DNA from: an uncultured Bacilli bacterium
GTDB taxonomy: Bacteria > Bacillota_I > Bacilli_A > RF39 > UBA660
Direction of reading: 5' to 3'
NCBI GenBank assembly: GCA_944350315.1
Contig: CALVON010000001.1
Coordinates: 10,033-74,032, forward strand
Length of the DNA stretch: 64,000 nucleotides
Shown here: piece by piece, positions 7,298 through 51,740 of the stretch
Layout: every line of letters starts with the position of its first letter
Position numbering within the stretch: position 1 is the stretch's first letter
The notes under the pieces: generated by a model
Database searches by the model: none
What the model was told of the DNA's origin: nothing
Seen by the model: the letters and a program-made list of their open reading frames with translations, nothing else
Made by a program: the position numbers and the translations under genes

Positions 7298-7301
<4 letters not shown>

Positions 7302-8029
7302 TTGCTTTTATATAATACACTTAAATTATAAGGTTTACTAAGCAATACTTTATCATTAAATGACATAAAATATCTTTCTGTTAAATTTACATTTATATAT
7401 TCTGAAGTAACACTGACATTTTTTCCCTCTACCTCTATTACTTCACTAAAATCGTTTGCATAATCATAATATACTAAAGTATTATTGCCAACCACTGATA
7501 CATAAGAACCACCGCTAAGCTCTTTATATAAAACATCATTAATTAACAAGTTGGCATCATATGGAAAGAAAAATAAATCTTCTCCATCATACATAAAGAA
7601 ATATTCATAAAATGAAGAATCAGTACCATTTTTAATACTATGAATACTATCGTCATTAATATAACTTGCATACTTATAAATACGATATTGGCTTCCTTCT
7701 CTTAAAGGAAAAGCTACAATCATTTCCTGTGGAAATATTACTTCTAATCTATCTTTATAATATATTGGCGTCGAATCATAATCTATTTTTTTATCTTTTG
7801 CTTTAATATCGACAATTTTCTCTTTCATGTCATATGTAATTACTGCCGTGTATTCTGTTTTAATACCTCCAAAATACTGATAAACTAAAGTGTCTCGTTT
7901 ATCTCTATAATTATCATATTGATATTCCCTATATAGAAAATAAAGGGTAATAAGTAACCCAAATACAACAATTATTGGTATAAATATTTTATATTTTTCC
8001 TGAAAAATTTTTTTAATCTTATTACCCAT
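7298..8029 (-). CDS. Single-pass (N-terminal TM) extracytoplasmic protein, unknown family
   Basis: 243 aa with TM IFIPIIVVFGLLITLYFLY, then a beta-rich, Y/D/N-rich domain. GGGAGG RBS and a 2-nt gap to the upstream gene. Confidence 0.6.
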
Positions 8030-8031
8030 AA

Positions 8032-9471
8032 TTACCTCCCAAACTTAAACGAATAACTACTATTAATATCTATTGTTCCAAAACTTCCCAAAACATTAAC
8101 AACTGATAATTTTAATTGTGTATTTTTATCAATATTATAACCAGATATATCGAAGGTTCCCATAATATACTTCAAATTTTCTGAAACTATTAAATTATCA
8201 TCGATAGATGCACTTTTTTTAACAGTAGAACCATCTGTAGGATCCACTTCATAATAATCAAATGATAAATTGACTTTTATATTATCAACTTTATAGCCAC
8301 TTTCCAAATATACTTTATAAGTAATTGTGTTATTGACACTGCTAACTTTATACACCTCTATAGAATATTCTGGTTTTTTAGTTGTTACATTCATTTTGTC
8401 GAATGTATTTCTAATTATTTCTCCAGAATCATCTGCAGTAGTATAAACAAAACTTAATTCATACATCGTATCTGGAGCAAGATTATCAAAAACAACATGT
8501 GTATCATTTTTGGATAAATATATAACTTCTAATTTACCATCTTTTAGAATTTCAACATATACTGACTTGTATTCATTATAAGGATCATATACTACATAGT
8601 CGACATCTATTTGTGACAACCCAGAAGTAACTCTTACTACTGAAGTCATTTTTGTCTTATCTTTAATATCTTCTATATCACTATTATCATTTCCACTACC
8701 GCCATTATTAACAACACCACTTCCACTACCACCATTACTACCTACCTGATTATTACCACTACTATTACCAGCGCCATTATCAGTACCATCATCATCATCT
8801 TCTTCTTCAGGAACATATTGGTTTGTAGTACCTATAATTTTCTTTAAATCAATATCATAATTACCAAAATTAATAATTTCATTATTAATATCGAAACGAT
8901 ATTTTGCTGTAACTAAAATAGTTGGCGTAATTGTCTTTAAATTAACTTTATTGTTAGATAGTTTCGCATTTCCTAGTTTATCAAGTTCTACTAACAAATA
9001 GTTACTCGCCTGGACATTATTATCACTACTCTTAATCTCTCTATCAACTACTAAATATTCCCTATCGGCGAGTTTATAAAATTTTGTATTAGTAGTATTA
9101 GGTAAAATTGTTTCATCAACATTTTTAACAATTTTTCCGTCTTCTTGAATTTCATAAAAGTCGCCATATAATTTCAATGAACCTGTAATTTCATTATAGA
9201 CAATAACTTTTTTCCCTAAAGAAATTTCCTTATCTTGATAAACTAAATAATAATTATCGTTCCATCTTATTTTTAACTTTGCATCATCATCAACTTGTAT
9301 ATAATTTTTATCAGTATCTTGAATAATAGCTCCAGATTCAATTAAATATTCTACTTTTAATGCTTTTGTATACTTGTAAATAAACAAGGAGAAAACAAAA
9401 ACAACTAAAACCATTAAAATCAAAATAACTAAAAAACTTCTTTTATTCCTTATATCATATTTTCTCCTCAT
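8032..9471 (-). CDS. Single-pass surface protein: TM, membrane-proximal domain, acidic/Gly-Ser-Asn linker, FN3-like domains
   Basis: 479 aa with TM FLVILILMVLVVFVFSLFIY, linker EEEDDDDGTDNGAGNSSGNNQVGSNGGSGSGVVNNGGSGNDNSD, and an FN3-like signature DTMYELSFVY. GGAGGA RBS overlaps the stop of the giant gene. Confidence 0.65.
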   Translation of the reverse strand: MRRKYDIRNKRSFLVILILMVLVVFVFSLFIYKYTKALKVEYLIESGAIIQDTDKNYIQVDDDAKLKIRWNDNYYLVYQDKEISLGKKVIVYNEITGSLKLYGDFYEIQEDGKIVKNVDETILPNTTNTKFYKLADREYLVVDREIKSSDNNVQASNYLLVELDKLGNAKLSNNKVNLKTITPTILVTAKYRFDINNEIINFGNYDIDLKKIIGTTNQYVPEEEDDDDGTDNGAGNSSGNNQVGSNGGSGSGVVNNGGSGNDNSDIEDIKDKTKMTSVVRVTSGLSQIDVDYVVYDPYNEYKSVYVEILKDGKLEVIYLSKNDTHVVFDNLAPDTMYELSFVYTTADDSGEIIRNTFDKMNVTTKKPEYSIEVYKVSSVNNTITYKVYLESGYKVDNIKVNLSFDYYEVDPTDGSTVKKSASIDDNLIVSENLKYIMGTFDISGYNIDKNTQLKLSVVNVLGSFGTIDINSSYSFKFGR

Positions 9472-9479
9472 TTTTCCTC

Positions 9480-12400
9480 CTAATTGTTATTTTCCATATC
9501 TTTAACATAAGCAACACTTGCTGTAAATGATGGATTATATGCTGCTGTTAAATTAACTAATTTTTCTGGATCATTAGGATCTTTAACATCAAAACTAAGT
9601 GTTATTAAATAATACATTCCTTCAGTATTTTTAATACCATCATTTCTCGTTATTACATACATCCCATATCCTGATTCATCATTAAATTCAAATTTATTTT
9701 TATCACCAATCGTATCAGTACCACTTACAATAAGACCACCATTAAATTCATCATCTAAACTGATAGAATAATTAACATTGACTACATTATCAAAGTTAGT
9801 ACCACTTCTAAATAACACAATATAACTATTATCTGTAATAACATAAGAAATATCATGTCCAAATGTTACCCCATAGCTATCAGTAGTATAAATAGAATGA
9901 CTTCTGCTAACTTCATAAGTTCTATCTTCTTTTGGTATATCTTGACTATAATTATTAACATAAGCATCACTATATACCATAATAGAATATTTTGTATCGG
10001 CATCTAAATCAGTAATTCTAATTTTTTTATTAACTACCAAAGCATCAAATTCATAATTTTCATATTCCTCAATATCAACATATGTCCCGTCGCTACTAAC
10101 TTCCTGCAAAGTACCAACAATATCACCGGATGAATTAACTAATTTTACAAAATATTTACCATTTACTATAGTTCTATCTAAATCATTAACATTAATTGTA
10201 AAATCAATAAAATATTTTCCATCTTCGTATCCCGCTTTTCTAGTCACTACAAATGATGGTTCTCTTAATGCCGTTAACTTAAATATTCTATCTTTACTAG
10301 GTATTAAATTAACATACTGTCTTCCCTCTACATAATCACCATTAACATCTTTTTCATACAAAGATGCTACTGCATATATAAAAATGTAATAATTTTTATT
10401 ATATTCTAAATCATACTTTGTAATATCTTCTTGACTAACAATTGTACTACTAACATCTCCATCAAGAATTTCTTTTTTGAATATATATCCAGAATCTTTT
10501 GTACATGTATTATCTTCACATATCATGTACATAACATCAAAATTGTAAGGATAATTATTTTGATATCTTGTTAAATTAATCTTAGTATTAAGTATTCTAT
10601 TTCCATATATCGTATCGTCTACTTGATAAGTAACTTCTCTATTCGTATATAAACTTTCCCCATTTTTTGTTCCAAAAGAATAAGTTTTTGTTTCATAGCT
10701 ATCTCTTACACTCTCATCAAATAATTGTGTAAATTCATATTTACCATTTTTATATAAATAAGCATAAACATTAAAGTAATATTTTTCACTACTTGTTACT
10801 GAAGCTACACCATCAATAACCGCTTCATATGTTTTATTAGGATTATCAACATCTACTTTAATTTTTACTCTAGGTCTAACAATAGAACTAACATCATGAT
10901 TAAGAGCATCATTTTCATTTTTCCAAACATCAATATATAAATAATATTCTCCGTCTTCATTTTTTATATCATTTAAATCAAGGCCAGATATTGAAAGAGC
11001 CATTACAGAGCCATTAATCAAACTTGTCCTTTGACTAACACTAACTTTAGGGGTAATACTACTAAATGAAAATGTATTATTATCGCACTTCATAGTATCT
11101 ACAGAAATCATTTTTGGATTAAGAATACCATAACTAGAATTATATCCTAAACTAGATAACCCTATATTATTAATGTTATTATAATTATTATTATTCATCA
11201 TACTTTTATAGAATAAAGACGTTCTTTCAGCATTATTAAATGAATAAGTATAATAACCTTTAGTAACATTTAATTCTTCACTCCACAAAGATATCTTTCC
11301 ATTTTTATCAAACGAAATATACTTACCATATTCTGATGTGTTATTATTTTGCATTATCATATATTGGTAGTCCTTACCATCACCAACTGTATAATCATAA
11401 CCAGTAAGTCCATTATCATATAAAGCCTCAATCGTAACTGAAATTATATTTGTCTTGTCAACACTAGATTGCATACCTGCATTTTTTAAATCGATATAAT
11501 CAACAGAAAAGCATCTAGCCTCATTATCAGAAGCAGCACATTTAGATAATTGCCATAATTCTTTATTTAATTCATTACCTAAAGAATCTTTAAATTTAAC
11601 TCTATAACTAACAACTCGATTTAATATTTCTTCACTAGCTAATAATTTAATTGTCACTTTATTGTCAGTAAGTGGATTATTAATAATTTCATACTCAAAA
11701 TTATATATTTCATCATTTGCATCATAAAAACCATCAAATAATACTACACCTTCATCCTTACCATCTAAATAATTAACCACATCATCATCTATTACACCAG
11801 TATTTTTAATATTCTTCTTATAGTATAGTTGATAAGTATCGTTATTATTAAGTCCTGACACTATAATATCACCACTATATTCTTTATTGCCAGTAGAACT
11901 AATAGATAATTTTTGTTCAATCCCACCATTAACTTTATAATAAAAGCCATAATCAACATCGCTGCTTTCTCTATATAAAGCATTATCAGGATCAGTAATT
12001 ACATATCTATATGTAATACTATTAGCATCTGATTTAGCAATATACATTCCTACTTTAGGAGTTTCCTTAGTTGTATAATCAGTCTTTTTATATACTCCAT
12101 AATCAGATGGTGAATCTGCATTATTACTTGAAGGATATAAACTACTTCCAGAATCAGAACTAACTTCAATTTCATAACCTACATAATAACTATTGCCTCT
12201 TACCATCGTCAAACTAGTAGTTCCATATTCAATTCCATAATCCATATACACTTCAGTAAGGTAATTTCCTATTTCTAAATCGCTTATTGACTCACTTATC
12301 TTATCTACTAAAACTAATTCATCAGAATCGTTCTTTATATAAAATTTTACTTTATTAAAGTTCTTATCATACACATATATATTTATCTTCTGTGGCATTA

Positions 12401-15212
12401 ACCCATTAGCAACTAAACCTCGACGATCATATACAGCATTAACCGTATAACCAACAACTGTTCCCGAATCATTAAGTTCATCAAAAAGATTTGCAGAAAG
12501 TCCATTAGTTATTTCATTTACAATAATAATAGGCTCTTCAACATTATCAAGAAGTAAAGACTCAAGAATATTATAAACCATTACATTATTCTCAATTTTT
12601 ACCTCATTCGTTTCTTCTAAATCATAATAAGCTCTTATCATGATTGTATATTCTGGGCTTAACTTTCCATCTTCACCTAAACTCTTTAAGGTATCAATAT
12701 CTAACCCAAAAGTTCCATCAGTAGTAATTGTATAATAATTATCATAAAACATTTCTTTTAAATTAACTGTCTCACTACTTGTAAATACAACAGGCGCTAT
12801 TAATGGATCCTGAGATTTAACATCATCTAAATGATTTCCCTCATATAAACTAATTACTACTTTTTTAATTGCTGCCACTGACTCTTCTGGTGATAAACTA
12901 CCGATATTATTTTTTGATGCCTCCAATTTCACTCTTTGATTAACTACATGATTTGCACTACTTAAAAGTTTATCTTCAGCCGGATAAATAGCCATAAAAC
13001 TAGACAATGTTTTTGTAGAAATATTTCTCTTTGAATCATCTGTATGCATAATTTCTACTCTTTGTTGATCCGCATCATCATTTAAAATAGCACTTACTTC
13101 AATCGTATATTGTGTTCCTTCTTGAAGACCATCAACAAATAAGTCATATTTAATCTCATCATTTACAATTTCAAAATCAGCCACAAAAGATTTAACAATA
13201 ACCTCTCCATTTACAGAATTTTTCTTAATAGTAATTACTGTACTACTATTTTCACTAGCACAACCTTCTCTATTTGGCATACTAACCAAACAACTATTAT
13301 CTGTTAAATAAATTGTCGCTCCTATAGTATTATAGCTTATTAATTCTTCTCTAGGAACAACCGTAACATAAGGGTCACTACCCATTACAAAATTAATTCT
13401 ATCACTTGTTGTATATTCAACATACTTTTCATTATCATAGTATTCAATAACAACTTTATAAAAATAATTTGTATCATTTTTTAATTCATTTTCTCCATTA
13501 CCTACTTTAATTTCTATTGGAGATGCATTCGTCTTAGTAATAGGATTTATTACTAACTTATCTGGATTATCATTTTCATAAACCAAATAAGTATAACTTG
13601 TAATTGCATTATCTGGATCTATTATATTTCCAAGAGATAATTTAAAACTTCCAGAAGCTAAATCTTTATTCGCTTCCATATCACTAAAACTAGGTGTTTT
13701 CTTTAAAGTCATTGAAGTAAGCGTTATATTGTAAACATCTTTAAAATTAGAAGATTCTACAGAAAATTCATCTAAAACAGCTGTATAAATTGTATTACTA
13801 TCTAATCCATCAAATACAATCTCACCATTTTTATCTATATCACTAAGCCATACTACCTTCTCTATATATTTAATTTCACCAGTTGCTCCATCTACATAAC
13901 TAGTCTTAACCACTTCGTTTTGATGAGTTTCTTCATTAAATTTATACAAAGACAATTTTGCATTAGTTATATCTGTTTCTTCATCAACATTAATTTTATA
14001 TCCTATCTCACTATCAGTAGCATACGTTCTTTCTAAACTTATACCAAAATCATTTGTCTCAAATATCTTCTGAAAATATTTTCCATCATCTTTCTCATTA
14101 ATCACCGTAAACAAATATCTCGTTTTAGGAGATAACAAATTAACGTTTATTTCTACATCTTGTAATACTTGAGCTGTCATGTCTACTGTTCTTCCTGTGT
14201 CCATATTAGTAACTTTTAACATAAATCTATCATCTTGTGTATTATTCATAATATCAAAAATTACTGAAACACTAGTACTACTAACAGTAGCTTTTTTTAA
14301 AGAAATAATAATGTCTTCAACATCATCTGGATTAATGCCCTCTCCAGAACCAGTTCCACTACCGTCACCATCTTCTAAATCACCATTGCCATTTTGATCA
14401 TCGCCTGGTGTCTGTACATTACCACCTGTTTCATCATCATTAGGCTTATTATCATCATCTTTATCATCAATAGGAATTATTTCGACATTCTCATTACCAT
14501 CGATAGTTATCTCTGTAATAGACATCACATCCTCATCATTTAAACTAATCTTCTTATCCCCTAAATCGATAATCAAATTATTAACATAAAATAATGTTTC
14601 ATCTGCTGCAACTTGATATTTAACATCCTTATTTTCTATATTGACAATTCCATCTTCAACATATACTATTTCAAAATAATCTCCCTCAATTAAAGATTCA
14701 TTACCAGGAATTTTAGCTTTAACATTACCAACAATAATATATTTATTATCACTAATTCTTCCCATAAAGTTATTAAGTTTAATATCGTTTTTACTACTTT
14801 CTATAACATAACTATCGCCATCTTTATCGATAATTGACTTATTAGTAATATTATAAAAAATAACTGTTCCACTACCCGTCACTGAATCAAGATCAAGTAT
14901 AGCCCCGTTTTTCAGAAATGATAAAGATCCATCCATATAATGAATAAAACTATCCTTAAGAACTGATACTTCATTATTATCAACATCAGTAAACTCAATC
15001 ATAGAAGATAAATTAGTCTTATAACTTGTACTTCCTTCAAAAAAATATTTTTCAACTTTCTCACTAAGAGGATTAAGTACATATCCGCTTTTAACAAAAG
15101 CATCATCACTATCATCAAATAAATATAATGCTCCAAATACTAATAAAATTAAAATAATTAGACTTAAAGATAAAATAAATAAAAACTTTCCATTAAACAT
15201 TTTTTTCATCAT
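9480..15212 (-). CDS. Giant (about 1,910 aa) N-terminally anchored surface protein with many FN3/Ig-like repeats
   Basis: TM FLFILSLSLIILILLVFGALYL and an acidic/Gly linker (DDKDDDNKPNDDETGG...GDGSGTGSGEG). At least 8 recurrences of the FN3 F-strand-like signature [DNKG]T.Y.[FILY].[VI]: KTRYLFTVI, NTIYTAVL, DTNYFYKVVI, GTQYTIEV, DTYQLYY, KYYFNVYAY, KNYYIFIYA, DTKYSIMVY. No LPXTG or C-terminal TM. The ATG at 15212 lies 6 nt after GAGG; the ORF track starts at the GTG inside the RBS. Confidence 0.8.
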   Translation of the reverse strand: MMKKMFNGKFLFILSLSLIILILLVFGALYLFDDSDDAFVKSGYVLNPLSEKVEKYFFEGSTSYKTNLSSMIEFTDVDNNEVSVLKDSFIHYMDGSLSFLKNGAILDLDSVTGSGTVIFYNITNKSIIDKDGDSYVIESSKNDIKLNNFMGRISDNKYIIVGNVKAKIPGNESLIEGDYFEIVYVEDGIVNIENKDVKYQVAADETLFYVNNLIIDLGDKKISLNDEDVMSITEITIDGNENVEIIPIDDKDDDNKPNDDETGGNVQTPGDDQNGNGDLEDGDGSGTGSGEGINPDDVEDIIISLKKATVSSTSVSVIFDIMNNTQDDRFMLKVTNMDTGRTVDMTAQVLQDVEINVNLLSPKTRYLFTVINEKDDGKYFQKIFETNDFGISLERTYATDSEIGYKINVDEETDITNAKLSLYKFNEETHQNEVVKTSYVDGATGEIKYIEKVVWLSDIDKNGEIVFDGLDSNTIYTAVLDEFSVESSNFKDVYNITLTSMTLKKTPSFSDMEANKDLASGSFKLSLGNIIDPDNAITSYTYLVYENDNPDKLVINPITKTNASPIEIKVGNGENELKNDTNYFYKVVIEYYDNEKYVEYTTSDRINFVMGSDPYVTVVPREELISYNTIGATIYLTDNSCLVSMPNREGCASENSSTVITIKKNSVNGEVIVKSFVADFEIVNDEIKYDLFVDGLQEGTQYTIEVSAILNDDADQQRVEIMHTDDSKRNISTKTLSSFMAIYPAEDKLLSSANHVVNQRVKLEASKNNIGSLSPEESVAAIKKVVISLYEGNHLDDVKSQDPLIAPVVFTSSETVNLKEMFYDNYYTITTDGTFGLDIDTLKSLGEDGKLSPEYTIMIRAYYDLEETNEVKIENNVMVYNILESLLLDNVEEPIIIVNEITNGLSANLFDELNDSGTVVGYTVNAVYDRRGLVANGLMPQKINIYVYDKNFNKVKFYIKNDSDELVLVDKISESISDLEIGNYLTEVYMDYGIEYGTTSLTMVRGNSYYVGYEIEVSSDSGSSLYPSSNNADSPSDYGVYKKTDYTTKETPKVGMYIAKSDANSITYRYVITDPDNALYRESSDVDYGFYYKVNGGIEQKLSISSTGNKEYSGDIIVSGLNNNDTYQLYYKKNIKNTGVIDDDVVNYLDGKDEGVVLFDGFYDANDEIYNFEYEIINNPLTDNKVTIKLLASEEILNRVVSYRVKFKDSLGNELNKELWQLSKCAASDNEARCFSVDYIDLKNAGMQSSVDKTNIISVTIEALYDNGLTGYDYTVGDGKDYQYMIMQNNNTSEYGKYISFDKNGKISLWSEELNVTKGYYTYSFNNAERTSLFYKSMMNNNNYNNINNIGLSSLGYNSSYGILNPKMISVDTMKCDNNTFSFSSITPKVSVSQRTSLINGSVMALSISGLDLNDIKNEDGEYYLYIDVWKNENDALNHDVSSIVRPRVKIKVDVDNPNKTYEAVIDGVASVTSSEKYYFNVYAYLYKNGKYEFTQLFDESVRDSYETKTYSFGTKNGESLYTNREVTYQVDDTIYGNRILNTKINLTRYQNNYPYNFDVMYMICEDNTCTKDSGYIFKKEILDGDVSSTIVSQEDITKYDLEYNKNYYIFIYAVASLYEKDVNGDYVEGRQYVNLIPSKDRIFKLTALREPSFVVTRKAGYEDGKYFIDFTINVNDLDRTIVNGKYFVKLVNSSGDIVGTLQEVSSDGTYVDIEEYENYEFDALVVNKKIRITDLDADTKYSIMVYSDAYVNNYSQDIPKEDRTYEVSRSHSIYTTDSYGVTFGHDISYVITDNSYIVLFRSGTNFDNVVNVNYSISLDDEFNGGLIVSGTDTIGDKNKFEFNDESGYGMYVITRNDGIKNTEGMYYLITLSFDVKDPNDPEKLVNLTAAYNPSFTASVAYVKDMENNN

Positions 15213-15249
15213 ACACACCTCTTATATCTTACTACACTATACTATGAAA

Positions 15250-16454: not shown

Positions 16455-17408
16455 CTAATTATCTTTATACATTTCTTCAATCTCTTTAAATATATCTGGA
16501 ACATCTACCCTAAAATCCATTTTTTCTTTTGTAACTGGATGTACAAAGCCAATCTCTTTAGCATGAAGCATCTGTCCAAAAGCTCTATATCTATCAAAAT
16601 CTTCCTTATTATTAGTATGACCCTTTATAAAAGACTCATCACTTTTACAATAACCATACACTAAATCATTTATCACAGGATGCTTAATATATGCCATATG
16701 AACTCTAATTTGATGTGTTCTCCCTGTCTCCAATTTACACTCAATTAAAGTAGCATTAGAATATCTTTTAAGAACTCTAAAATGGGTTATTGCATTCTTA
16801 GAATTATCTCCAGTTACGCACATCTTCTTTCTATCCTTACTATCTCTTCCAATTGGGGCGTCAATAGTAGCACTATCTTCTTTAATAACTCCAGATACTA
16901 AAGCTACATATTTTCTGATAACACTTTTTTCACTAATTTGCTTAGCTAAATCATTATGAACCATATCATTTTTAGCTACCAATAAAAGTCCTGATGTATC
17001 AGCATCTATTCTATGAACAATTCCTGGTCTAATACTACCATTTATTGAAGATAGATTATTATTACAGTGATATATCAACGCATTAACCAAAGTTTTACTA
17101 TGATTTCCATTTCCTGGATGAACAACCATTCCAGATGGCTTATTGACAACAAGTAAATAATCATCTTCATACAAAATATCTAATGGTATACATTCTCCTT
17201 CAACCTTATAATCTTCTTCACTAAACACATCACTAATCGTAATCACATCATCTTGTTTAACTAAATAACTTGCCTTTACTTCCTTACCATTTACAAATAT
17301 TTTCTTATTATCAATTAATTTTTTTATTTTACTTCTACTCATATTGCACTTATCAATTAAATACTTATCTATTCTAATACCGTCATCTATTACCTTTAAT
17401 TCAGTCAT
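16455..17408 (-). CDS. rluD: RluD-family 23S rRNA pseudouridine synthase (S4 domain plus catalytic domain)
   Basis: HRIDADTSGLLLVAK and GRTHQIRVHM motifs. The ATG at 17408 overlaps the lspA stop (ATGA), so I prefer it to the ORF-track start at 17423. Confidence 0.85.
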   Translation of the reverse strand: MTELKVIDDGIRIDKYLIDKCNMSRSKIKKLIDNKKIFVNGKEVKASYLVKQDDVITISDVFSEEDYKVEGECIPLDILYEDDYLLVVNKPSGMVVHPGNGNHSKTLVNALIYHCNNNLSSINGSIRPGIVHRIDADTSGLLLVAKNDMVHNDLAKQISEKSVIRKYVALVSGVIKEDSATIDAPIGRDSKDRKKMCVTGDNSKNAITHFRVLKRYSNATLIECKLETGRTHQIRVHMAYIKHPVINDLVYGYCKSDESFIKGHTNNKEDFDRYRAFGQMLHAKEIGFVHPVTKEKMDFRVDVPDIFKEIEEMYKDN

Positions 17409-17857
17409 TTTTTTACCCACCATGTCCCAATAAGTAACAACACTACTCCTGAAACTATAAAAGTATCAGCTAAATTAAATATAGGATAATTCCAATCAAA
17501 AATATTTAAATCAATAAAATCAATAACATATCCGCAAAAAATTCTATTAAAGAAATTTCCTAAAGCTCCCCCCAAAATTAACGAATAAGATAATTTCTCA
17601 AAAAATTTTAAAGAATTACTTTTATATATATAATAAATAAGCGCAATTATAATTAAAAGTGATACAAATATTATAAAAAAAGTATTTGAAGCAAAAATAC
17701 TCCAAGCAGCTCCTGTATTTTTCACATATGTCAATTTAAATAAATTATCTATAACTACTATACTTTGATTAAAAATCATAAATTCACTAACTAAATACTT
17801 ACTAACTATATCTAATAACAAAAACAATAAAGTAAAACCAATTATCAATTTAAACAC
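17405..17857 (-). CDS. lspA: Lipoprotein signal peptidase II
   Basis: NTGAAWS, GGALGNFFNR, VIDFID and FNLAD motifs in a 4-TM, 150-aa protein. Confidence 0.85.
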   Translation of the reverse strand: MFKLIIGFTLLFLLLDIVSKYLVSEFMIFNQSIVVIDNLFKLTYVKNTGAAWSIFASNTFFIIFVSLLIIIALIYYIYKSNSLKFFEKLSYSLILGGALGNFFNRIFCGYVIDFIDLNIFDWNYPIFNLADTFIVSGVVLLLIGTWWVKK

Positions 17858-18324
17858 CCCTCTGGTAAATTACTAATTACACCACTTGACTTAAGACAAT
17901 CAAAATCATCTTTTTCTATTTTATAGTAATATACGTAATCTTCATCACGATATACTGACACTTTTGCAGACACATCACATGTTACATCCTCATTATTAGG
18001 ATTTACCAAATCACTAACCGTCATTGGCTTATATGTAGAATTTATAACATCATCAAATGTAATATCATTTGCCTTATAAATTTTTACCCCTAATTTATGA
18101 GTCTTATCAATAGAACAAACTTCTTCATTGTATGATAATTTCTTAGCATCACTATCTAAATATATCTTCATGGCATCTTTAATACTATCTATAAAAACAT
18201 CCTCTGTTTTACCTTTAGCATTTTCTAAATTAAATATTCCACTGGCTAACACAATACCCATAACTATTGCTAAAATAACCAAGGTTGCCAACAACTCAAC
18301 TAATGTAAAACCTTTTTTATTCAT
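17845..18324 (-). CDS. Type IV pilin / pseudopilin-like protein (prepilin-type N-terminus)
   Basis: MNKKGFTLVELLATLVILAIVMGIV shows the G|FTLVE cleavage/methylation motif with Glu+5. AGGTGA RBS before the ATG at 18324. The ORF-track N-terminal extension is unsupported. Confidence 0.7.
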   Translation of the reverse strand: MNKKGFTLVELLATLVILAIVMGIVLASGIFNLENAKGKTEDVFIDSIKDAMKIYLDSDAKKLSYNEEVCSIDKTHKLGVKIYKANDITFDDVINSTYKPMTVSDLVNPNNEDVTCDVSAKVSVYRDEDYVYYYKIEKDDFDCLKSSGVISNLPEGCLN

Positions 18325-18461
18325 TTCATCACCTGTCAATAAAATTATACCATTTTTTATTATAATTATCAAATATTTTATTAAAACCGGATATATTATA
18401 GCCCTCACTAGACAAATTATCTATTTTAAGATAAAATAACTATTAAAGAAGGGATAATTAT

Positions 18462-34797: not shown

Positions 34798-35766
34798 TTA
34801 CTCATCATCATCACATACTCCAATTAAATCCTTGTAAACTGTATTAACACACTTCTTTTTTTGATTTAATTGAGAATGGACATAAATATTTAACGTTATA
34901 TTAACGGAAGCATGACCTAGTAATTCACTAACAGTCTTATAATCACACCCTAACCGAATACAATTAGAAGCAAAAGTATGCCTTAATGTATGAAAACTAA
35001 CTCTATTTATTCCTGCTTTTCTTAATACTCGATAATAATATTTTCTCAAACTAACCGGTTCTAATGGACTATTTGTACTCGTTAAAACATAATATCCATC
35101 ATTTTTTTTAAATTCTTTTAATTTTTCTATAAATTCAGGATTAACAGGAACAATTCTCATGGAATTTTTAGTTTTTGGTGGTGTAAGAATTAATTTAGAA
35201 ACTTTTTTATTTTTAATATAAATTCTTTGAATAGTTTTATTAATTACTATATAATTTTTATTAAAATTAATATCTCCCCATTTTAAAGCACATAATTCAC
35301 CTATTCTAATCCCCGTATATAAAGAAAGTAAAATCCCCATATCCTTTTCATAGTTTTTTTGCAATAAATAACTTATTAATTTTCTTTGTTCCCCTTTACT
35401 TAAAACCTTTAATTTATTTTTCAAGCAATCATTTGGATAATAAAAGTCTAAATCAATCATTTCCATCATCTTATTTTTAATTGCATATTTTATTGATAAC
35501 TTTAAGATAGAAATAATATCTCTAATTGTTTTACAAGATAACCCTCCTTGTCCATCTACTCTTCCATTTTGATACTTCTTATTAATGAATTCTTGTAATA
35601 ACCTATTGCTAATTTCACTTAAATAATAATCCCCTATATCTGGTATTATATGATTATAAACAATTCCACAATAGTTAGCATATGTTGACTCCTTCAAAAA
35701 ACTCCTTCTTATTTTCAACCATTCCCACACCAAATCCCTATATAAAATTTTTTTTCTTTTAAACAT
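34798..35766 (-). CDS. Tyrosine site-specific recombinase (phage-integrase family)
   Basis: TGIRIGEL (Arg I), HTLRHTFAS (HxxR) and LGHASVNITLNIYVH (catalytic Tyr region). Confidence 0.85.
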   Translation of the reverse strand: MFKRKKILYRDLVWEWLKIRRSFLKESTYANYCGIVYNHIIPDIGDYYLSEISNRLLQEFINKKYQNGRVDGQGGLSCKTIRDIISILKLSIKYAIKNKMMEMIDLDFYYPNDCLKNKLKVLSKGEQRKLISYLLQKNYEKDMGILLSLYTGIRIGELCALKWGDINFNKNYIVINKTIQRIYIKNKKVSKLILTPPKTKNSMRIVPVNPEFIEKLKEFKKNDGYYVLTSTNSPLEPVSLRKYYYRVLRKAGINRVSFHTLRHTFASNCIRLGCDYKTVSELLGHASVNITLNIYVHSQLNQKKKCVNTVYKDLIGVCDDDE

Positions 35767-35801
35767 CTTCTTACTCCTTCTGATACCCTAGTATCAAAAA
35801 A

Positions 35802-35857
35802 AGTATAATTACTTTTTGGTAATTTAGCAACCTGTTTTGGTAATAATATTACCAAAA
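35802..35857 (-). promoter_or_regulatory. Integrase promoter (TTGCTA-17-TATACT) embedded in ATTACCAAAA repeats and a 23-bp palindrome
   Basis: The minus strand reads TATACT at 35807..35802 and TTGCTA at 35830..35825. Palindrome TTTTGGTAATAATATTACCAAAA spans 35835-35857, with a third GGTAAT copy at 35818-35823. Confidence 0.4.
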
Positions 35858-35894
35858 AAAGGAACTTTAAAAGTCCCTTTTATTAATCACATAA

Positions 35895-36488
35895 CTATTT
35901 TTCAAATATATATTCTTTTGCCATAACATAATACTTTGCTGCCGATACTATTGATAAAACAGCAGCTAAAATTAATAAAAAGTCAGATACTCTAATAGGT
36001 ATTAATGAAAATGGTAAATCATAAAATAATTTAAGTGTTAAACCTATCATTAAACTAGCTGTTTTATATTTTGCCACTTTAATAGCAGCAACCGCTTTTC
36101 CCTTATTTCCAATTAACATCTTAATTGAATCAACAATTATATCTCTTGCAATAATAATAACAGCAATCACTGGATGAACTAAATTATCACAAGCAAGAAC
36201 AACTATTAAAGTATTTGTCAATATTTTATCACTTATAGCATCTATCATTTTTCCAAAATCAGTTACCATATTATATTTTCTAGCCACTTTTCCATCAATA
36301 AAATCCGTCAAAGAAGCAACAACAAAAATAACTCCCGCAATAATATATTTTAATTCTACCGTAATATTTCCATTAACTACATAAATAGGTAATTCAACAC
36401 CTACTTGATGCCATGGAAATAAAAGAATAATCAGCATAACTAATGATAAAAAAATTCTTGACATTGTAATTTTATTAGCAGTATTCAC
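35895..36488 (-). CDS. pgsA: CDP-diacylglycerol--glycerol-3-phosphate 3-phosphatidyltransferase
   Basis: CDP-alcohol phosphatidyltransferase motif DFIDGKVARKYNMVTDFGKMIDAISDK. Follows rodZ, as in Bacillus. Confidence 0.9.
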   Translation of the reverse strand: MNTANKITMSRIFLSLVMLIILLFPWHQVGVELPIYVVNGNITVELKYIIAGVIFVVASLTDFIDGKVARKYNMVTDFGKMIDAISDKILTNTLIVVLACDNLVHPVIAVIIIARDIIVDSIKMLIGNKGKAVAAIKVAKYKTASLMIGLTLKLFYDLPFSLIPIRVSDFLLILAAVLSIVSAAKYYVMAKEYIFEK

Positions 36489-36490
36489 TT

Positions 36491-36958
36491 CTACCTCCTT
36501 ATTTTATAGGTGATGTTTGTATCTTGAAAATCATTTCCAGATACTTCACTAGCTAAAAAATATCCTAAAATAGCTAAAATAACTACTACTATAACTGAAA
36601 TTATAATTATTTTAAATGGCCTATTCTTATTTTTAATGCTAGTATAAGGAGAAACAACTTCTTTTTTTTGTGTATTATTAGCTTTTGCCTTTTCTATCTC
36701 ATCTACTGGTATCTTTGAAGTAAAATCAAATAAAAATTCATTGAACTCATCGACCATTTTTTCACCATCTAGTCCCAAATATTTTGCATAATCTCTAATA
36801 AAGTATTTTAAAAATACAACATCTTTAAAATCTTCTTTTTTTCCTTCTTCTAAACTTATTATTTGACTAGGTCTTAATTTTAAATCTTCAGCCGCCTCTT
36901 CAACCGAGACACCATTTTCTTCCCTTTTTTCTTTTAATTTTAAACCAATATCTTTCAT
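36491..36958 (-). CDS. rodZ: RodZ/YmfM-like HTH (XRE) membrane protein
   Basis: N-terminal HTH (LKEKREENGVSVEEAAEDLKLRPSQIISLEEG) and a single TM near the C-terminus. Sits immediately upstream of pgsA. Confidence 0.6.
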   Translation of the reverse strand: MKDIGLKLKEKREENGVSVEEAAEDLKLRPSQIISLEEGKKEDFKDVVFLKYFIRDYAKYLGLDGEKMVDEFNEFLFDFTSKIPVDEIEKAKANNTQKKEVVSPYTSIKNKNRPFKIIIISVIVVVILAILGYFLASEVSGNDFQDTNITYKIRR

Positions 36959-47611: not shown

Positions 47612-47839
47612 ATGGAAAATATTGATATTAGAAACTATATCATAGAAAACTTTAAAGACGATAATGAAGAAAAAATAAAAGATTCCATAGAAACTACTAT
47701 CAAATTCAAAGATGAAGATGCCCTTATCGGATTAGGAGTATTATTTGAAATTCTATGGAATAGTATGACTGAAGAACAAAAAAAAGAAAGCCTTACCCAA
47801 ATAAGAAATAGTATTAAAAATCTAGCTAACCCAAATTAG
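47612..47839 (+). CDS. sspI: Small acid-soluble spore protein SspI
   Basis: LIGLGVLFEILW core and overall length match B. subtilis SspI (LPGLGVLFEVIW). A terminator hairpin CTAGCTAA/TTAGCTAG plus T7 lies at 47822-47850. Confidence 0.65.
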   Translation: MENIDIRNYIIENFKDDNEEKIKDSIETTIKFKDEDALIGLGVLFEILWNSMTEEQKKESLTQIRNSIKNLANPN

Positions 47840-47981
47840 CTAGTTTTTTTACTATAAATCTATTTTTATGTGTTTTATTAACCATAAGGCTAATAAGGAA
47901 TTAAACCTCTACGATATTCCATACTCATAATGTCCTTAAACATTATTTTGACTGAAGATATAAATCTTATATACTGTAGTC

Positions 47982-48094
47982 TGCCGAAAACCAAACGGGC
48001 GGCGTTGTTAGAGTTCGCATTACCATTATTGTTGTTGAAGTTGAAGACGCCCGCATTAACCCCATTGTTGTAGTTACCACCACGATTAAACCAC
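47982..48094 (-). repeat. DGR template-repeat (TR)-like copy of the 3' end of the upstream gene
   Basis: 113 nt, co-linear with 48259-48371 (offset 277). It has 14 AAY codons and 29 coding-strand adenines. 21 of the 25 differences to the VR are at TR adenines. The 68-aa ORF at 47890..48096 is just this repeat read in frame. Confidence 0.75.
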
Positions 48095-48139
48095 ATTTAT
48101 ACCAAAATTATACCCCTCTTTAAACAACCTACCCCATGC

Positions 48140-48167
48140 CCGGTTTGCAAAAAAAGAGGCAAACCGG
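48140..48167. other. GC-rich 9-bp hairpin between VR and TR
   Basis: CCGGTTTGC, a 10-nt loop, then GCAAACCGG. No U-tract on either strand, so it is not a canonical terminator. Confidence 0.5.
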
Positions 48168-48247
48168 ACACATCTCCATTTCGTATTTTTCTGCTACCTA
48201 TTTATCTTTTCCTATTGTCACAGCCTCCGTTTCTAAAGAGCATGTCG

Positions 48248-50050
48248 CTACGCTCCTATGCCGAAAACCAAACGGGCGGCGATGCTAGAGCCCGCACCAC
48301 CAGGGCTGACGCCGAAGCCGAAGACGCCCGCATACACCCCATAGGGGTAGTAGGCACCACGAATAAACCACGGATTACCTGAAGAAACGAAACTGGCATA
48401 ATCACTATACCAGCTAGATGTTTCTGATAAAGCGTGTCCATAACATACTCCACCATTACATGCCGTTAAAATATTTGTTGATGTATACAAATCATAATAT
48501 TTTTTTGCAGGAAAGCTGGTAAAACCACTCCGATATAGTGTATTATTGTAATTTCCCATTACTCTATCATATACGCCTCCAGACATATCATATACTCCAG
48601 TAATATTACCAGTCGAACTAGCAACCTTTGTTAAATCTCTTGTAGTATTATTACTCGTTAAAAAACCATCCCAGGTATATGTTCCATTAGTGCTAGTAGA
48701 TCCGCTTCCGCCAACAGCACCACCACTTCTTCCTGTATAATATCCACTACTATTATTTATGTATATTTCTCTATTTACCCCATATTTGGAATGTGATAGG
48801 TAAGCTACTGCGCCCCATTCACTGTTTTTCATCATATGACTATCTGTTGCTGTAGTTAATCCATAAGTTGATGAACCATTAAATGTTACATTACTATCTG
48901 ATAATTCACCTCCAGCAAATTTTAAGGCTGTTTGAAATTGCGTTGATAAATTTTGGTCTCTTAAGGATTCTACATCTGGTAATATTGTTGGGGTTGTTTC
49001 ATCTCCTGTTGTTTCAAATTTTCCTACCCATATTCCAGATAATTCTTCGCCTGTATCTCTTACTCCATCACTATCATCATCCCACCAAAACGCTGGATGG
49101 GTAATATATTCTCCTACTTGACCACCTGTTGATATTTCATCTTTTGATTCAAATACAATTTCTATCTCTTGTTCACTTCCTAGACTACTTTCTTGCAACG
49201 TCCATATCTTATACTTATATCTTGGTATCCATACAAGGTATGCTAAGATATCTGATTGATTTACTTCTACTCCAGATGTATTTAAATATGTATTTCTTGA
49301 TGATTCAGTCACTAATATGGCATTTGCCCATTCTTTATTTGAATAATTATACCAACTACTATCACTTGTTGATACTGTTTTTATTATGGTATTATCTCCT
49401 GATACATCAAAAGTTATTGGAATCATTCCTTCATCTAATACTGGACTACTAGGTTCTACTTCTGATGATACATCTGTACAACTTCCATTTAATGATAGGC
49501 TAAAAGATTGATTCATTGTTGATGATGATTCCTCAGCAGCATCTAACCATATCCATAAATAAAATGTTGCTGGGGTTGATGAAGAATATTCATTTTCTGT
49601 AAATAATTCTATTTTATCTCCGGCTTTTTTACCTTTAAAATTACCTGATACTACAACATCATCGTATGGACTAGTATCACTAGTAGTAAATGAATACATA
49701 AAATTATCACTATTAGATAGTCCTGTACCGATACTATTTATATCTAACCATAAGTCCATATAGATAGTTTTATCTGCTACATTAACTGTAGGTGTTACGG
49801 TTACTGTTCTTTTAATATAGTTATTACTATTTTGTTCATTTACTTCTGTTGGTACTAAAATAACATCTCCCTGACTTATATTACCCCCACCATCAGCAGC
49901 ACATGAAAAATCTGATTCTAATGTAAATACTACATTAGTTTTTTGTTCTTCACTAGTTTGCCATCTCCAATAAGCTAGTGTTCCCCCTAATATTGTAAAT
50001 ATTACTGTTAATATTGATAATGTAATTATTATTTTTTTATTTCTATCCAT
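48248..50050 (-). CDS. Secreted/anchored protein with C-terminal FGE-sulfatase (C-type-lectin fold)-like domain; candidate DGR target
   Basis: N-terminal hydrophobic segment ending GGTLAYW. The C-terminal half carries ITHPAFWW, NSEWGAVAYLSHSKYG, GVYDMSGGVYDRVMG (compare the FGE motif G.yDM.GNvwEW), and PWFIRG...AARLVFG. The last 37 codons form the VR. Confidence 0.75.
   Translation of the reverse strand: MDRNKKIIITLSILTVIFTILGGTLAYWRWQTSEEQKTNVVFTLESDFSCAADGGGNISQGDVILVPTEVNEQNSNNYIKRTVTVTPTVNVADKTIYMDLWLDINSIGTGLSNSDNFMYSFTTSDTSPYDDVVVSGNFKGKKAGDKIELFTENEYSSSTPATFYLWIWLDAAEESSSTMNQSFSLSLNGSCTDVSSEVEPSSPVLDEGMIPITFDVSGDNTIIKTVSTSDSSWYNYSNKEWANAILVTESSRNTYLNTSGVEVNQSDILAYLVWIPRYKYKIWTLQESSLGSEQEIEIVFESKDEISTGGQVGEYITHPAFWWDDDSDGVRDTGEELSGIWVGKFETTGDETTPTILPDVESLRDQNLSTQFQTALKFAGGELSDSNVTFNGSSTYGLTTATDSHMMKNSEWGAVAYLSHSKYGVNREIYINNSSGYYTGRSGGAVGGSGSTSTNGTYTWDGFLTSNNTTRDLTKVASSTGNITGVYDMSGGVYDRVMGNYNNTLYRSGFTSFPAKKYYDLYTSTNILTACNGGVCYGHALSETSSWYSDYASFVSSGNPWFIRGAYYPYGVYAGVFGFGVSPGGAGSSIAARLVFGIGA
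48259..48371 (-). repeat. DGR variable-repeat (VR)-like segment at the 3' end of the 600-aa gene
   Basis: It encodes WFIRGAYYPYGVYAGVFGFGVSPGGAGSSIAARLVFG, compared with the TR-encoded WFNRGGNYNNGVNAGVFNFNNNNGNANSNNAARLVFG. The adenine-free 3' 22 nt are identical. The segment is locally GC-rich in an AT-rich genome. Confidence 0.75.
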
Positions 50051-50123: not shown

Positions 50124-51740
50124 TTATTTTTCTATTAATACACTTCTAGTACCAATCATTGGACTACCCATACTAATATCTCCAAAATAGAATAATGCTT
50201 TATCTTTACCCCCTCTAATTATATAATCTCTATTACTCATAATTGAATTACCATTATACCAAGTATTTCCATCACTTAAAATTACTTCTTTAGTAGCACT
50301 ACCTATATTATAATTACCATATACATATTCTGATAAAGAACCAGCCATATCATATACTCCATATACATTTCTAGTAGTAGTATCTTGTTTATCATCTCCA
50401 GTAATATAACTACTATTTACTGATATACTAGAACATCCATCTATAGAACATACTCCATATTTAGAATGTGATAAATATAATGTAGCTCCCCATTCTAAAT
50501 TATTAACTATATGACTTTCTACTTTATCCCCTAAATTATAACTATTACTAAGACTACTAGTTATATTTTGATAATTAACTAATGTATCATTAGCATATCC
50601 CTCTACTAAAGGTATACTTAAATAATTATCATTATTTTTACTTATTTCATATTTATTAATCCAAAATCCCGTTAAATCATTTCCAAATACTGGATGAGTA
50701 ATATACATATCATTACTATACTTATTAGCTATTACTGTACTATTTAATTTATTTTCAAATATAATATCTATTCCATTATCATAAGCATTATAACTATCAT
50801 CTACTAAATCCATTGCATTCCATAATTTATATCTATATCTAGGTATCCATACATAGTATGCAAGTATATCTTCACTATTAATCTTCATTCCTACAGTAGT
50901 ATATACATTATTTTTAACAACTACTGCATTAGCCCATTTCTGATTATTATAATCATACCATAAATTATCTTTATTACTATTCTCCCTATCAGCTACTACC
51001 CATGAACCATTACTATATACAATAGGTACCATATTATCATATAAAATTGGTCTATTAGCACAAGAAGTATCATAATTAGCTACTCTTGTATATTCTTTCT
51101 TAGCCCCTCCATATAAAGCAATAAATACTTTCATCTTCATCTTACTATTAGCTATATTACTTTGATCTATCAAAGTACAAGTAGTTAAATCATCACAACT
51201 CTCACTTATCCACATAATTAATGTATATTTATCATAATCTTCATTATATTTAGGTAAATCTTCTTGAATAGTAGTAAGTCTATAATTATCTTCTAATATA
51301 CTACCATCAAATTCTGGAGATAAATTACCAGAAGATAATAATTTCCCATTCTTATATAAATTCCATTTAGTATATTCATTTAATAAAGAACAATCTATTT
51401 CCATATCACTTAACATAACATCATATATTAAATCTTCTTCTTTATTAGTAGATACTCCTCTTAAAGAAAACTCTAATCTAATAACATTATCTTTAGTATT
51501 TATATTTATATATTCATCACTAATAGGTTCTAATCCATTAAAAGAAATATCTTCATCTCCAACATATTCTACATTATATTCTCCCCCAGTAATTAATGTT
51601 TGTGTTCTATCATTAAGTAATTTAGAAGTAGCAAAAGTAATTCCCCCTATTCCTAATACAATAACTAATATTTCAAATACTATTACTAAAATATTTTTAT
51701 TCTTAAATCCCTTTATCTTTTTATCTTCATCCATAATCAC
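50124..51740 (-). CDS. Paralogous FGE-sulfatase-like domain protein without a VR
   Basis: It shares LWYDYNNQKWANAVVV, ILAYYVWIPRYRYKLW, ITHPVF, NLEWGATLYLSHSKYG and GVYDMAGSLSEYVYG with the 600-aa protein. Its C-terminus (IIRGGKDKALFYFGDISMG...) has no match to the TR. Confidence 0.7.
   Translation of the reverse strand: MIMDEDKKIKGFKNKNILVIVFEILVIVLGIGGITFATSKLLNDRTQTLITGGEYNVEYVGDEDISFNGLEPISDEYININTKDNVIRLEFSLRGVSTNKEEDLIYDVMLSDMEIDCSLLNEYTKWNLYKNGKLLSSGNLSPEFDGSILEDNYRLTTIQEDLPKYNEDYDKYTLIMWISESCDDLTTCTLIDQSNIANSKMKMKVFIALYGGAKKEYTRVANYDTSCANRPILYDNMVPIVYSNGSWVVADRENSNKDNLWYDYNNQKWANAVVVKNNVYTTVGMKINSEDILAYYVWIPRYRYKLWNAMDLVDDSYNAYDNGIDIIFENKLNSTVIANKYSNDMYITHPVFGNDLTGFWINKYEISKNNDNYLSIPLVEGYANDTLVNYQNITSSLSNSYNLGDKVESHIVNNLEWGATLYLSHSKYGVCSIDGCSSISVNSSYITGDDKQDTTTRNVYGVYDMAGSLSEYVYGNYNIGSATKEVILSDGNTWYNGNSIMSNRDYIIRGGKDKALFYFGDISMGSPMIGTRSVLIEK

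Follow-up and report, generated by a model that had tools for sequence, protein, structure and literature searches.

What can serve the template repeat (TR) of a DGR when no reverse transcriptase (RT) gene lies beside it? The question is raised by a 113-nt repeat pair in DNA of an uncultured Bacilli bacterium, of which one stretch of 64,000 nt (the window) was analysed at its full length. TRs are usually directly adjacent to the RT gene (PMC5758913), and it was fair of an earlier reading made from the letters alone (the sequence-only reading) to call an RT acting in trans unusual for a TR, although RT-less DGR loci, some of them apparently diversified in trans, have been described in Thiohalocapsa PB-PSB1 (PMC10907252). 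That reading offered three explanations: (a) an RT acting in trans from elsewhere in the genome, (b) a relic frozen after its last diversification, and (c) a true template that is another TR copy next to a distant RT. We put the chances at about even that the locus belongs to a split DGR, in which an autonomous TR-RNA unit is served by a distant RT. A more specific form of this reading, that the system is naturally split, with the TR as a small-RNA gene beside one dispersed target, the RT and any Avd unlinked to it, and the parts inherited, lost and exchanged independently, is held more tentatively, at somewhat short of even.

The only long repeat in the window is the 113-nt pair itself, at 47982-48094 and 48259-48371 (offset 277 nt), with the minus strand as the sense strand, and a 21-mer common to both copies occurs twice in the window with none expected. 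The first copy is the TR (47982..48094, minus strand; reading in the VR frame WFNRGGNYNNGVNAGVFNFNNNNGNANSNNAARLVFG). The second is the variable repeat (VR; 48259..48371, minus strand; encoding WFIRGAYYPYGVYAGVFGFGVSPGGAGSSIAARLVFG), which forms the last 41 codons of a 600-aa ORF. Alignment of the two copies revealed 25 mismatches, 21 of which (84%) fall on TR adenines and four elsewhere, so that 21 of the 30 TR adenines are changed in the VR. Fifteen of these adenines occupy codon position 1, fifteen codon position 2 and none codon position 3. The GC-rich 3′ end of the VR is an IMH-like block of 23 nt (48259..48281, minus strand; first letters GCCGCCCG) that is identical to the TR, and the two copies are distinguished by what follows it. 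The VR continues into the motif GGAGCGTAGCGAC (48256-48244), which overlaps the stop codon, and a flank of the form GGAGCGTA(A)GCGAC is found in five loci (the window, L002, L004, L055 and L061); the TR continues into GACTACAGTATAT instead, in two lineages. The pair therefore possesses the common GC-rich block with distinguishing flanks by which IMH and IMH* are recognized in DGRs. Because adenines are confined to codon positions 1 and 2 and the mismatches fall on adenines, the assignment as a genuine DGR template and variable pair is secure, and the DGR reading of the repeat, already proposed from the letters, is upheld. A 68-aa ORF that gene callers set over the TR (47890-48096) was rejected as a gene; it is an artefact whose frame is broken by indels relative to L055, the homologous locus of another species. 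The GC content of the TR, the VR and the 3′ module behind the VR is 42-62% in a genome of 26% GC (42-56% over 48000-48400, which holds most of the TR, the spacer and the VR, compared with 17-37% in the flanks), and composition held at this level argues for maintenance.

The ORF list places the target gene at 48248..50050 on the minus strand, with the VR at the C-terminus of its product. The protein consists of an N-terminal membrane anchor and a divergent C-terminal half resembling FGE-sulfatase and C-type lectin domains, which ends in the VR. Its own FGE-sulfatase Pfam match is weak (E=0.011); the relatives P0003 (34 bits) and P0017 (39 bits) lie above the 23.3-bit Pfam cut-off of that family. 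The target belongs to a very large family of 6803 homologues, and comparison with PDB sequences gave no match. An AlphaFold model built from a 17-sequence alignment reached a pLDDT of 48, with the C-terminal half below 50, and is too poor to use. Upstream of the TR lie the target, a 538-aa paralog with 32% identity to it (50124..51740, minus strand) and an AAA_14/DUF4143 ATPase gene, so the Pfam and ORF scan agrees with the sequence-only reading, which had seen only a paralog and an AAA ATPase there. The paralog shares no DNA repeat with the TR, its AT-rich C-terminus gave no TR match, and it is a decayed or never-targeted copy. The same condition was observed in the target of L003 (3040-4836), which comes from the same sample as L002: the C-termini of this protein and of the window paralog, including the VR equivalent of L003, are AT-rich and lack both IMH and hairpin, and the two genes appear to have left DGR control. 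Another variation on the family is the tandem fusion of two lectin-like modules, found in P0002, P0003, P0010 and P0016 (L004 3457-6567), of whose modules only the terminal one matches the TR; the internal one closes with a VR-like stretch that is degenerate and non-templated (for example WLARSSAYDKGVISGTFHYSATQGTQQTWQGFRSVLV).

Behind the VR, the GC-rich, non-decayed targets have in common a 3′ module of about 135 nt, which we located at 48138-48256 in the window, 11790-11915 in L002, about 6560-6690 in L004, about 640-755 in L055 and about 11815-11960 in L061. It consists of the VR flank described above, lying over the stop codon, and an inverted repeat some 90 nt further on. In the window this inverted repeat (48138..48169, minus strand, 90 nt past the VR) has the arms GTCCGGTTTGC and GCAAACCGGGC and the loop CTCTTTTTTT, and is unique. 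The stem sequences vary by lineage with pairing kept (CCCGGTTTGC/GCAAACCGGG, TCATTTTTGC/GCAAAAATGA and TTCATTTTTGC/GCAAAAATGAA): the stems are of 11-13 bp with compensatory differences across the window, L004, L055 and L061, being perfect over 13 bp in the last three, and the 10-nt loop is conserved as CTCTYTTTTT. An inverted repeat downstream of the VR is thus present, although its position at +90 nt and its 10-nt loop are atypical when compared with the hairpins described in PMC3240598. We rejected the hairpin as a canonical terminator since no T-run follows it, and we read the 3′ module as the target-recognition element of the family.

The sequence-only reading had reported no RT or Avd gene within reach, and every search that we made of the window came back equally empty. 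A Pfam scan of the ORFs of at least 100 aa, covering nearly all of them (two short ORFs nested inside scanned genes were left out), gave no RVT_1 and no bAvd or Avd-family match; tblastn of the window retrieved nothing with either the RT or the Avd-like protein that a related cassette (L056) encodes; and a six-frame search of the window for the RT motif pair G...SQ / Y.DD was likewise negative. The window ORFs that have no Pfam match possess signal-anchor-like N-termini and no polymerase features. The window reaches 47.9 kb from the TR on the low-coordinate side and 15.9 kb on the other, and neither an RT adjacent to the TR nor an accessory Avd in a common cassette was detected within these 64 kb. 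Avd-type accessory proteins are frequent in DGR cassettes and not universal. With its 26% GC and its recA, ATP synthase, trmD, rimM, tRNA synthetase, lemA and sspI genes, the window has the look of an ordinary chromosome. At 7298-15218, large ORFs of 243, 479 and 1912 aa with signal-anchor-like N-termini and no Pfam match lie beside a rhomboid protease gene. At 34798-35766, a phage-integrase-family recombinase gene stands near an HTH regulator gene (34798-36958) in housekeeping surroundings, and could be XerC/D-like or mark the edge of an integrated element.

The place where the RT would be expected is occupied by sspI (47612..47839, plus strand; Pfam SSPI, E=3e-18), which is convergent with the TR. 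Along the minus strand, the order behind the TR is 138 nt, a terminator, the 3′ end of sspI and then lemA, much as the sequence-only reading had described with its estimate of about 130 nt. The terminator scan identified this element (47822..47843) as an intrinsic terminator on both strands, which would end sspI on the plus strand and a putative TR transcript on the minus strand. Between it and the TR lies a conserved tail that is predicted to be structured (47865..47981, minus strand), delimited by alignment with L055 and by its predicted fold. L055 derives from another species of 37% GC, in which the order of target 3′ end, hairpin, TR and tail is the same as in the window. Comparison of the two loci revealed 82% identity over the tail of about 115 nt, 79% over the TR, 75% over the coding sequence and 73% over the spacer between VR and TR, and the tail alignment contains indels of 2, 2, 3, 4 and 5 nt, which indicates that the tail is non-coding. 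Hairpins are predicted in the tail; the consensus fold has 28 pairs, five with compensatory changes, as judged from these two sequences only, and a conserved GACTACAGTA beside the TR can pair with a conserved TATCGTAGAG further along. A search of Rfam assigned the tail to no family and gave nothing relevant. In studied DGRs the spacer RNA is folded, and it both brings in the RT-Avd complex and provides the adenosine for priming (PMC12875486); on the strength of its position and predicted structure the segment 47865-47981 is a candidate for the equivalent of this RNA, which would recruit the RT and prime cDNA synthesis.

The other end of the unit is less distinct. A candidate TR promoter can be read from the letters at 48095..48124 (minus strand), where a TATAAT (48112-48107) is joined by an overlapping extended -10 element, TGGTATAAA, at 48104-48096 with TTTAAA 17 nt upstream, and the window and L055 both have GTATAA(T/A) and TTGGTATA upstream of the TR. 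The TATAAT that the sequence-only reading proposed as a driver of the TR is thus present, but it has no acceptable -35 hexamer and a promoter consensus scan made no call upstream of the TR, so that promoter function and TR transcription are put forward as candidates. The unit as a whole looks maintained. A search with the 68-aa ORF that covers the TR recovered the identical protein on seven ENA contigs from at least two studies, and the TR was found to be 100% identical in all eight copies (the window and the seven contigs). In L052, which is diverged by 1%, none of the 6 SNPs in 583 nt fell within the 255 nt of TR and tail (p=0.03).

The four mismatches that lie outside adenines (48077 G>C, 48076 T>C, 48058 T>G and 48028 T>C) were found by TR/VR alignment exactly as described in the sequence-only reading, which had also argued that each homing event should erase such differences. 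The argument from these differences is weak. Three of the four changes lie directly beside a mutated adenine, and the remaining one adjoins one of these three (p of about 0.03); all four run from T or G to C or G, opposite to the AT bias of a genome with 26% GC; and three of the four are synonymous. The VR of L004 differs from the window TR at 18 adenines and three other positions, and has the TR state at all four of the window's non-adenine positions, which indicates that the changes arose on the VR side and led us to reject the possibility that they are changes in the TR. This VR was recovered from the same metagenome sample as L049, whose contig is identical to the window. Wu et al. 2018 (PMC5758913) report that changes outside adenines occur commonly and may be a built-in ability of some DGRs. 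Given their clustering at mutated adenines, their direction toward G or C, the state of the L004 VR and this precedent, the four differences look like non-canonical mutagenesis more than slow decay, and we did not count them as evidence of decay.

Strain variation bears on explanation (b), according to which a former target-TR-RT cassette lost its RT by a rearrangement that placed sspI after the tail, leaving the TR and VR as recent fossils. We regard such a frozen relic as unlikely. In its favour is the VR itself, which is identical to that of the window in L048, L049, L050 and L051, near-clonal contigs that fall into two haplotypes, A and B: L048 and L050, from different studies, have three SNPs in common relative to the window over 2.2 kb, and yet their VR is the same. 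Diversification at the window VR appears to be rare or currently off. The sequence-only reading had called for TR conservation to be compared with VR divergence, and the outcome is divided, the TR being constant in eight of eight copies and the VRs of other alleles differing, with the stasis of L048-L051 on the other side. A relic would also be in keeping with the empty 64 kb, with the four non-adenine differences, with the existence of decayed targets (the window paralog at 50124-51740 and L003 with its AT-rich VR equivalent), and with rearrangement 3′ of the target between strains. The last is seen in L002, which matches the window with 98.2% DNA identity over 11.9 kb and has no TR at the site and none within 10 kb. 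The match ends at position 48122 of the window (11927 of L002), 27 nt before the TR, and L002 continues into dnaD-, dnaI- and dnaE-like genes with a terminator of its own; its VR is of a different length. The region just 3′ of the target's 3′ module is therefore a rearrangement point, and the absence of the TR from this site in so close a strain indicates that the TR unit is dispensable or mobile.

Several observations stand against a relic. TR and tail are free of substitutions in eight copies, and high GC and the confinement of adenines to codon positions 1 and 2 have been kept despite the AT pressure of the genome. The non-adenine differences cluster at mutated adenines and point toward G or C, a pattern that does not resemble decay. 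The break toward sspI falls just past the tail of about 115 nt conserved with L055, homology fading about 20 nt before the sspI terminator, which implies that the whole TR unit was preserved. VRs are, moreover, highly diverse in the species complex. They differ among alleles of 71-89% identity, and at the protein level those of alleles and paralogs P0002-P0016 and P0121 vary exactly at the Asn codons of the TR with the constant residues kept. In L053, the spacer and TR of the window are present exactly beside a VR 3′ end of the AARLVLGIGA type (L053 1-40, compared with window 48281-48259), known from alleles that are 80-83% identical, and the combination of an identical TR with a VR end of that type points to recombination among target alleles. 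A similar composite was noticed in P0005: its N-terminus is that of the window target, and its C-terminal part with the VR looks the same as in the 1036-aa paralog P0003. Target alleles appear to be mosaic, and VR-bearing segments seem to move by recombination. Among the original explanations, (a) is thus favoured by the conservation of TR and tail, and (b) by the identical VR in two haplotypes.

Explanation (c) makes the window TR a bystander: a complete RT-TR cassette with a near-identical TR would be at work elsewhere, and the copy studied here would be an unused leftover duplicate. This is improbable in our judgement, more so than a relic, and the evidence on a second copy is mildly negative. 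TRs do normally adjoin an RT (PMC5758913), the pattern recalls the degenerate loci of Thiohalocapsa (PMC10907252), and a slightly different master TR could explain the three non-adenine differences of the L004 VR. However, a database-wide protein search with the TR peptide returned the sspI context on the seven contigs and no other called protein, the 113-nt TR is uninterrupted in all seven assemblies, although breaks would tend to arise there from a second identical copy, and the conserved tail and the terminator are intact at the window locus. Genome contigs scanned with the 21-mer IMH, a pattern that a degenerate CGY codon might have extended to the species representative, gave one chance match in a Hyphomicrobiales MAG of 65% GC; metagenome contigs gave 42 matches, all in unrelated high-GC or marine sequences; viral contigs scanned with the TR or IMH patterns gave nothing; and a scan for the tail motif gave a single chance match within a phage repeat protein. 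When viral contigs were searched with a profile of the target, no relatives were detected, and blastn and tblastn of phages and plasmids with the TR plus tail and with the C-terminal half of the target found nothing.

The sequence-only reading had named a broken or misjoined assembly at 47840-47980 as a caveat, and an artefact or chimera there could conceal an RT next to the TR; this can practically be ruled out. The TR/VR and 3′ module repeats can break assemblies, and the VR or spacer lies at or close to the end of three of the seven contigs. The exact TR is nevertheless present in every one of the seven, those extending far enough continue through tail, sspI and lemA, and this junction is identical to that of the window in contigs of different samples and assemblers, from at least two studies, which match the window at 99.0-100% identity.

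We return to the split DGR, which receives its context from relatives of the target. The targets of L002, L003, L004, L005 and L061, the last on a 1.3-Mb contig, have housekeeping neighbours and neither RT nor TR within about 10 kb; with five loci of this kind, remote targeting is normal in the lineage. A complete cassette was found in a distant relative (L056-L060; for example L056 8001-12095), where a target, a bAvd-like protein, an RT (RVT_1, E=9e-20) and an inverted TR lie among ribosomal-protein genes in a genome of about 50% GC. The TR of this cassette has its own promoter (TTGCAA-17-CATAAT), runs opposite to the VR, converges with the RT and differs from the VR at 12-23 positions depending on the sample, the VRs themselves differing between samples. 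A full RT cassette in a distant relative indicates that the target family is RT-dependent.

Type IV filament genes (T2SSF, prepilin peptidase A24, N_methyl pseudopilins and PilM/T2SSL) were observed a few kb from the targets of several relatives (L004 8557-10671; L005 1-294 and 15502-15906; L056 1827-2870) and in the window at 17405-18408, where an N_methyl protein gene (17845-18408) adjoins that of signal peptidase II (17405-17857), some 30 kb from the target. These genes may be linked in function to the targets.

In the split DGR as we picture it, the RT and any Avd would be encoded outside the window, on the same replicon or another; co-transcription of TR and RT is not required in DGRs, and the two may even lie on different strands (PMC5758913). 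An RNA of about 280 nt would be made from the minus strand, roughly from 48100 to 47815, running from the weak TR promoter to the terminator. The distant RT would bind this RNA through its 3′ tail and copy the TR with misincorporation at adenines, and the cDNA would replace the VR of the window target and of dispersed paralogs that bear the same IMH and hairpin module. The existence of this RT and its activity at the present day are both things that we infer. That template and enzyme may be inherited independently, as the naturally split form proposes, is hinted at by the same-species strain that lacks the TR at this site and by the mosaic allele beside an identical TR.

Compared with the Bordetella phage prototype BPP-1 (mtd-avd-TR-brt), the window locus has the same adenine-specific transfer from TR to VR, a VR at the C-terminus of a target that is putatively of lectin-fold type, a GC-rich IMH-like block, an inverted repeat downstream of the VR and a predicted structured RNA 3′ of the TR (PMC3240598, PMC12875486). 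Unlike in BPP-1, the TR is flanked by neither avd nor RT, IMH and IMH* have the same 23 nt and are told apart only by the letters behind them, and the locus is chromosomal, among housekeeping genes, rather than in a phage. The inverted repeat of BPP-1 lies 4-34 nt past the VR with a 4-nt GRNA loop (PMC3240598), whereas that of the window lies 90 nt past it with a 10-nt T-rich loop. The DGRs of Treponema denticola and Lineage-4 resemble the proposed arrangement in that one TR serves dispersed target paralogs, whose neighbours are housekeeping genes and whose distance from the RT is tens of kb or more (PMC5758913); those systems keep the TR beside the RT, whereas the window TR travels with a target and the RT would be remote.

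A precedent for the missing RT is given by the Thiohalocapsa PB-PSB1 loci (Dore et al. 2024, PMC10907252), which have a target, and sometimes a TR, with no RT, and some of which show evidence of diversification in trans, the source being a complete locus of their own class. There, debris of MITEs or transposons visibly stands in place of the RT, and the same genome has a complete sister locus; in the window no debris is seen, the TR unit ends cleanly at a terminator, and the host is AT-rich (26% GC) and carries sspI. The L056-L060 cassette is related by descent of its target (29% identity, E=2.5e-37), by its VR/TR peptide of the type WF.RGGNYNNG.NAG.F..N.NGNAN.NN.FR, and by a TR with a promoter of its own, a candidate one in the window, and a convergent gene behind it; that gene is the RT in the cassette and sspI in the window, and the tail sequences are not alignable. 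RT-less DGR loci are therefore already known, and what is distinctive in the window is a clean, reproducible TR unit attached to its target, together with an atypical distal hairpin.

Surveys of DGRs start from the RT and seek a TR no more than a few kb away, and they therefore cannot see stand-alone TR units. Should the locus be a relic, it would represent a cleanly bounded case of DGR death in which the RT was lost first and template and target were left intact, and its VR would be a dated one for estimating rates of rewriting. If a distant RT does use the window TR, the TR RNA is recognized entirely in trans in nature and the template can be a separately inherited module, and the number of DGR targets would then be underestimated in AT-rich bacteria that carry spore genes and are known mainly from metagenome assemblies.
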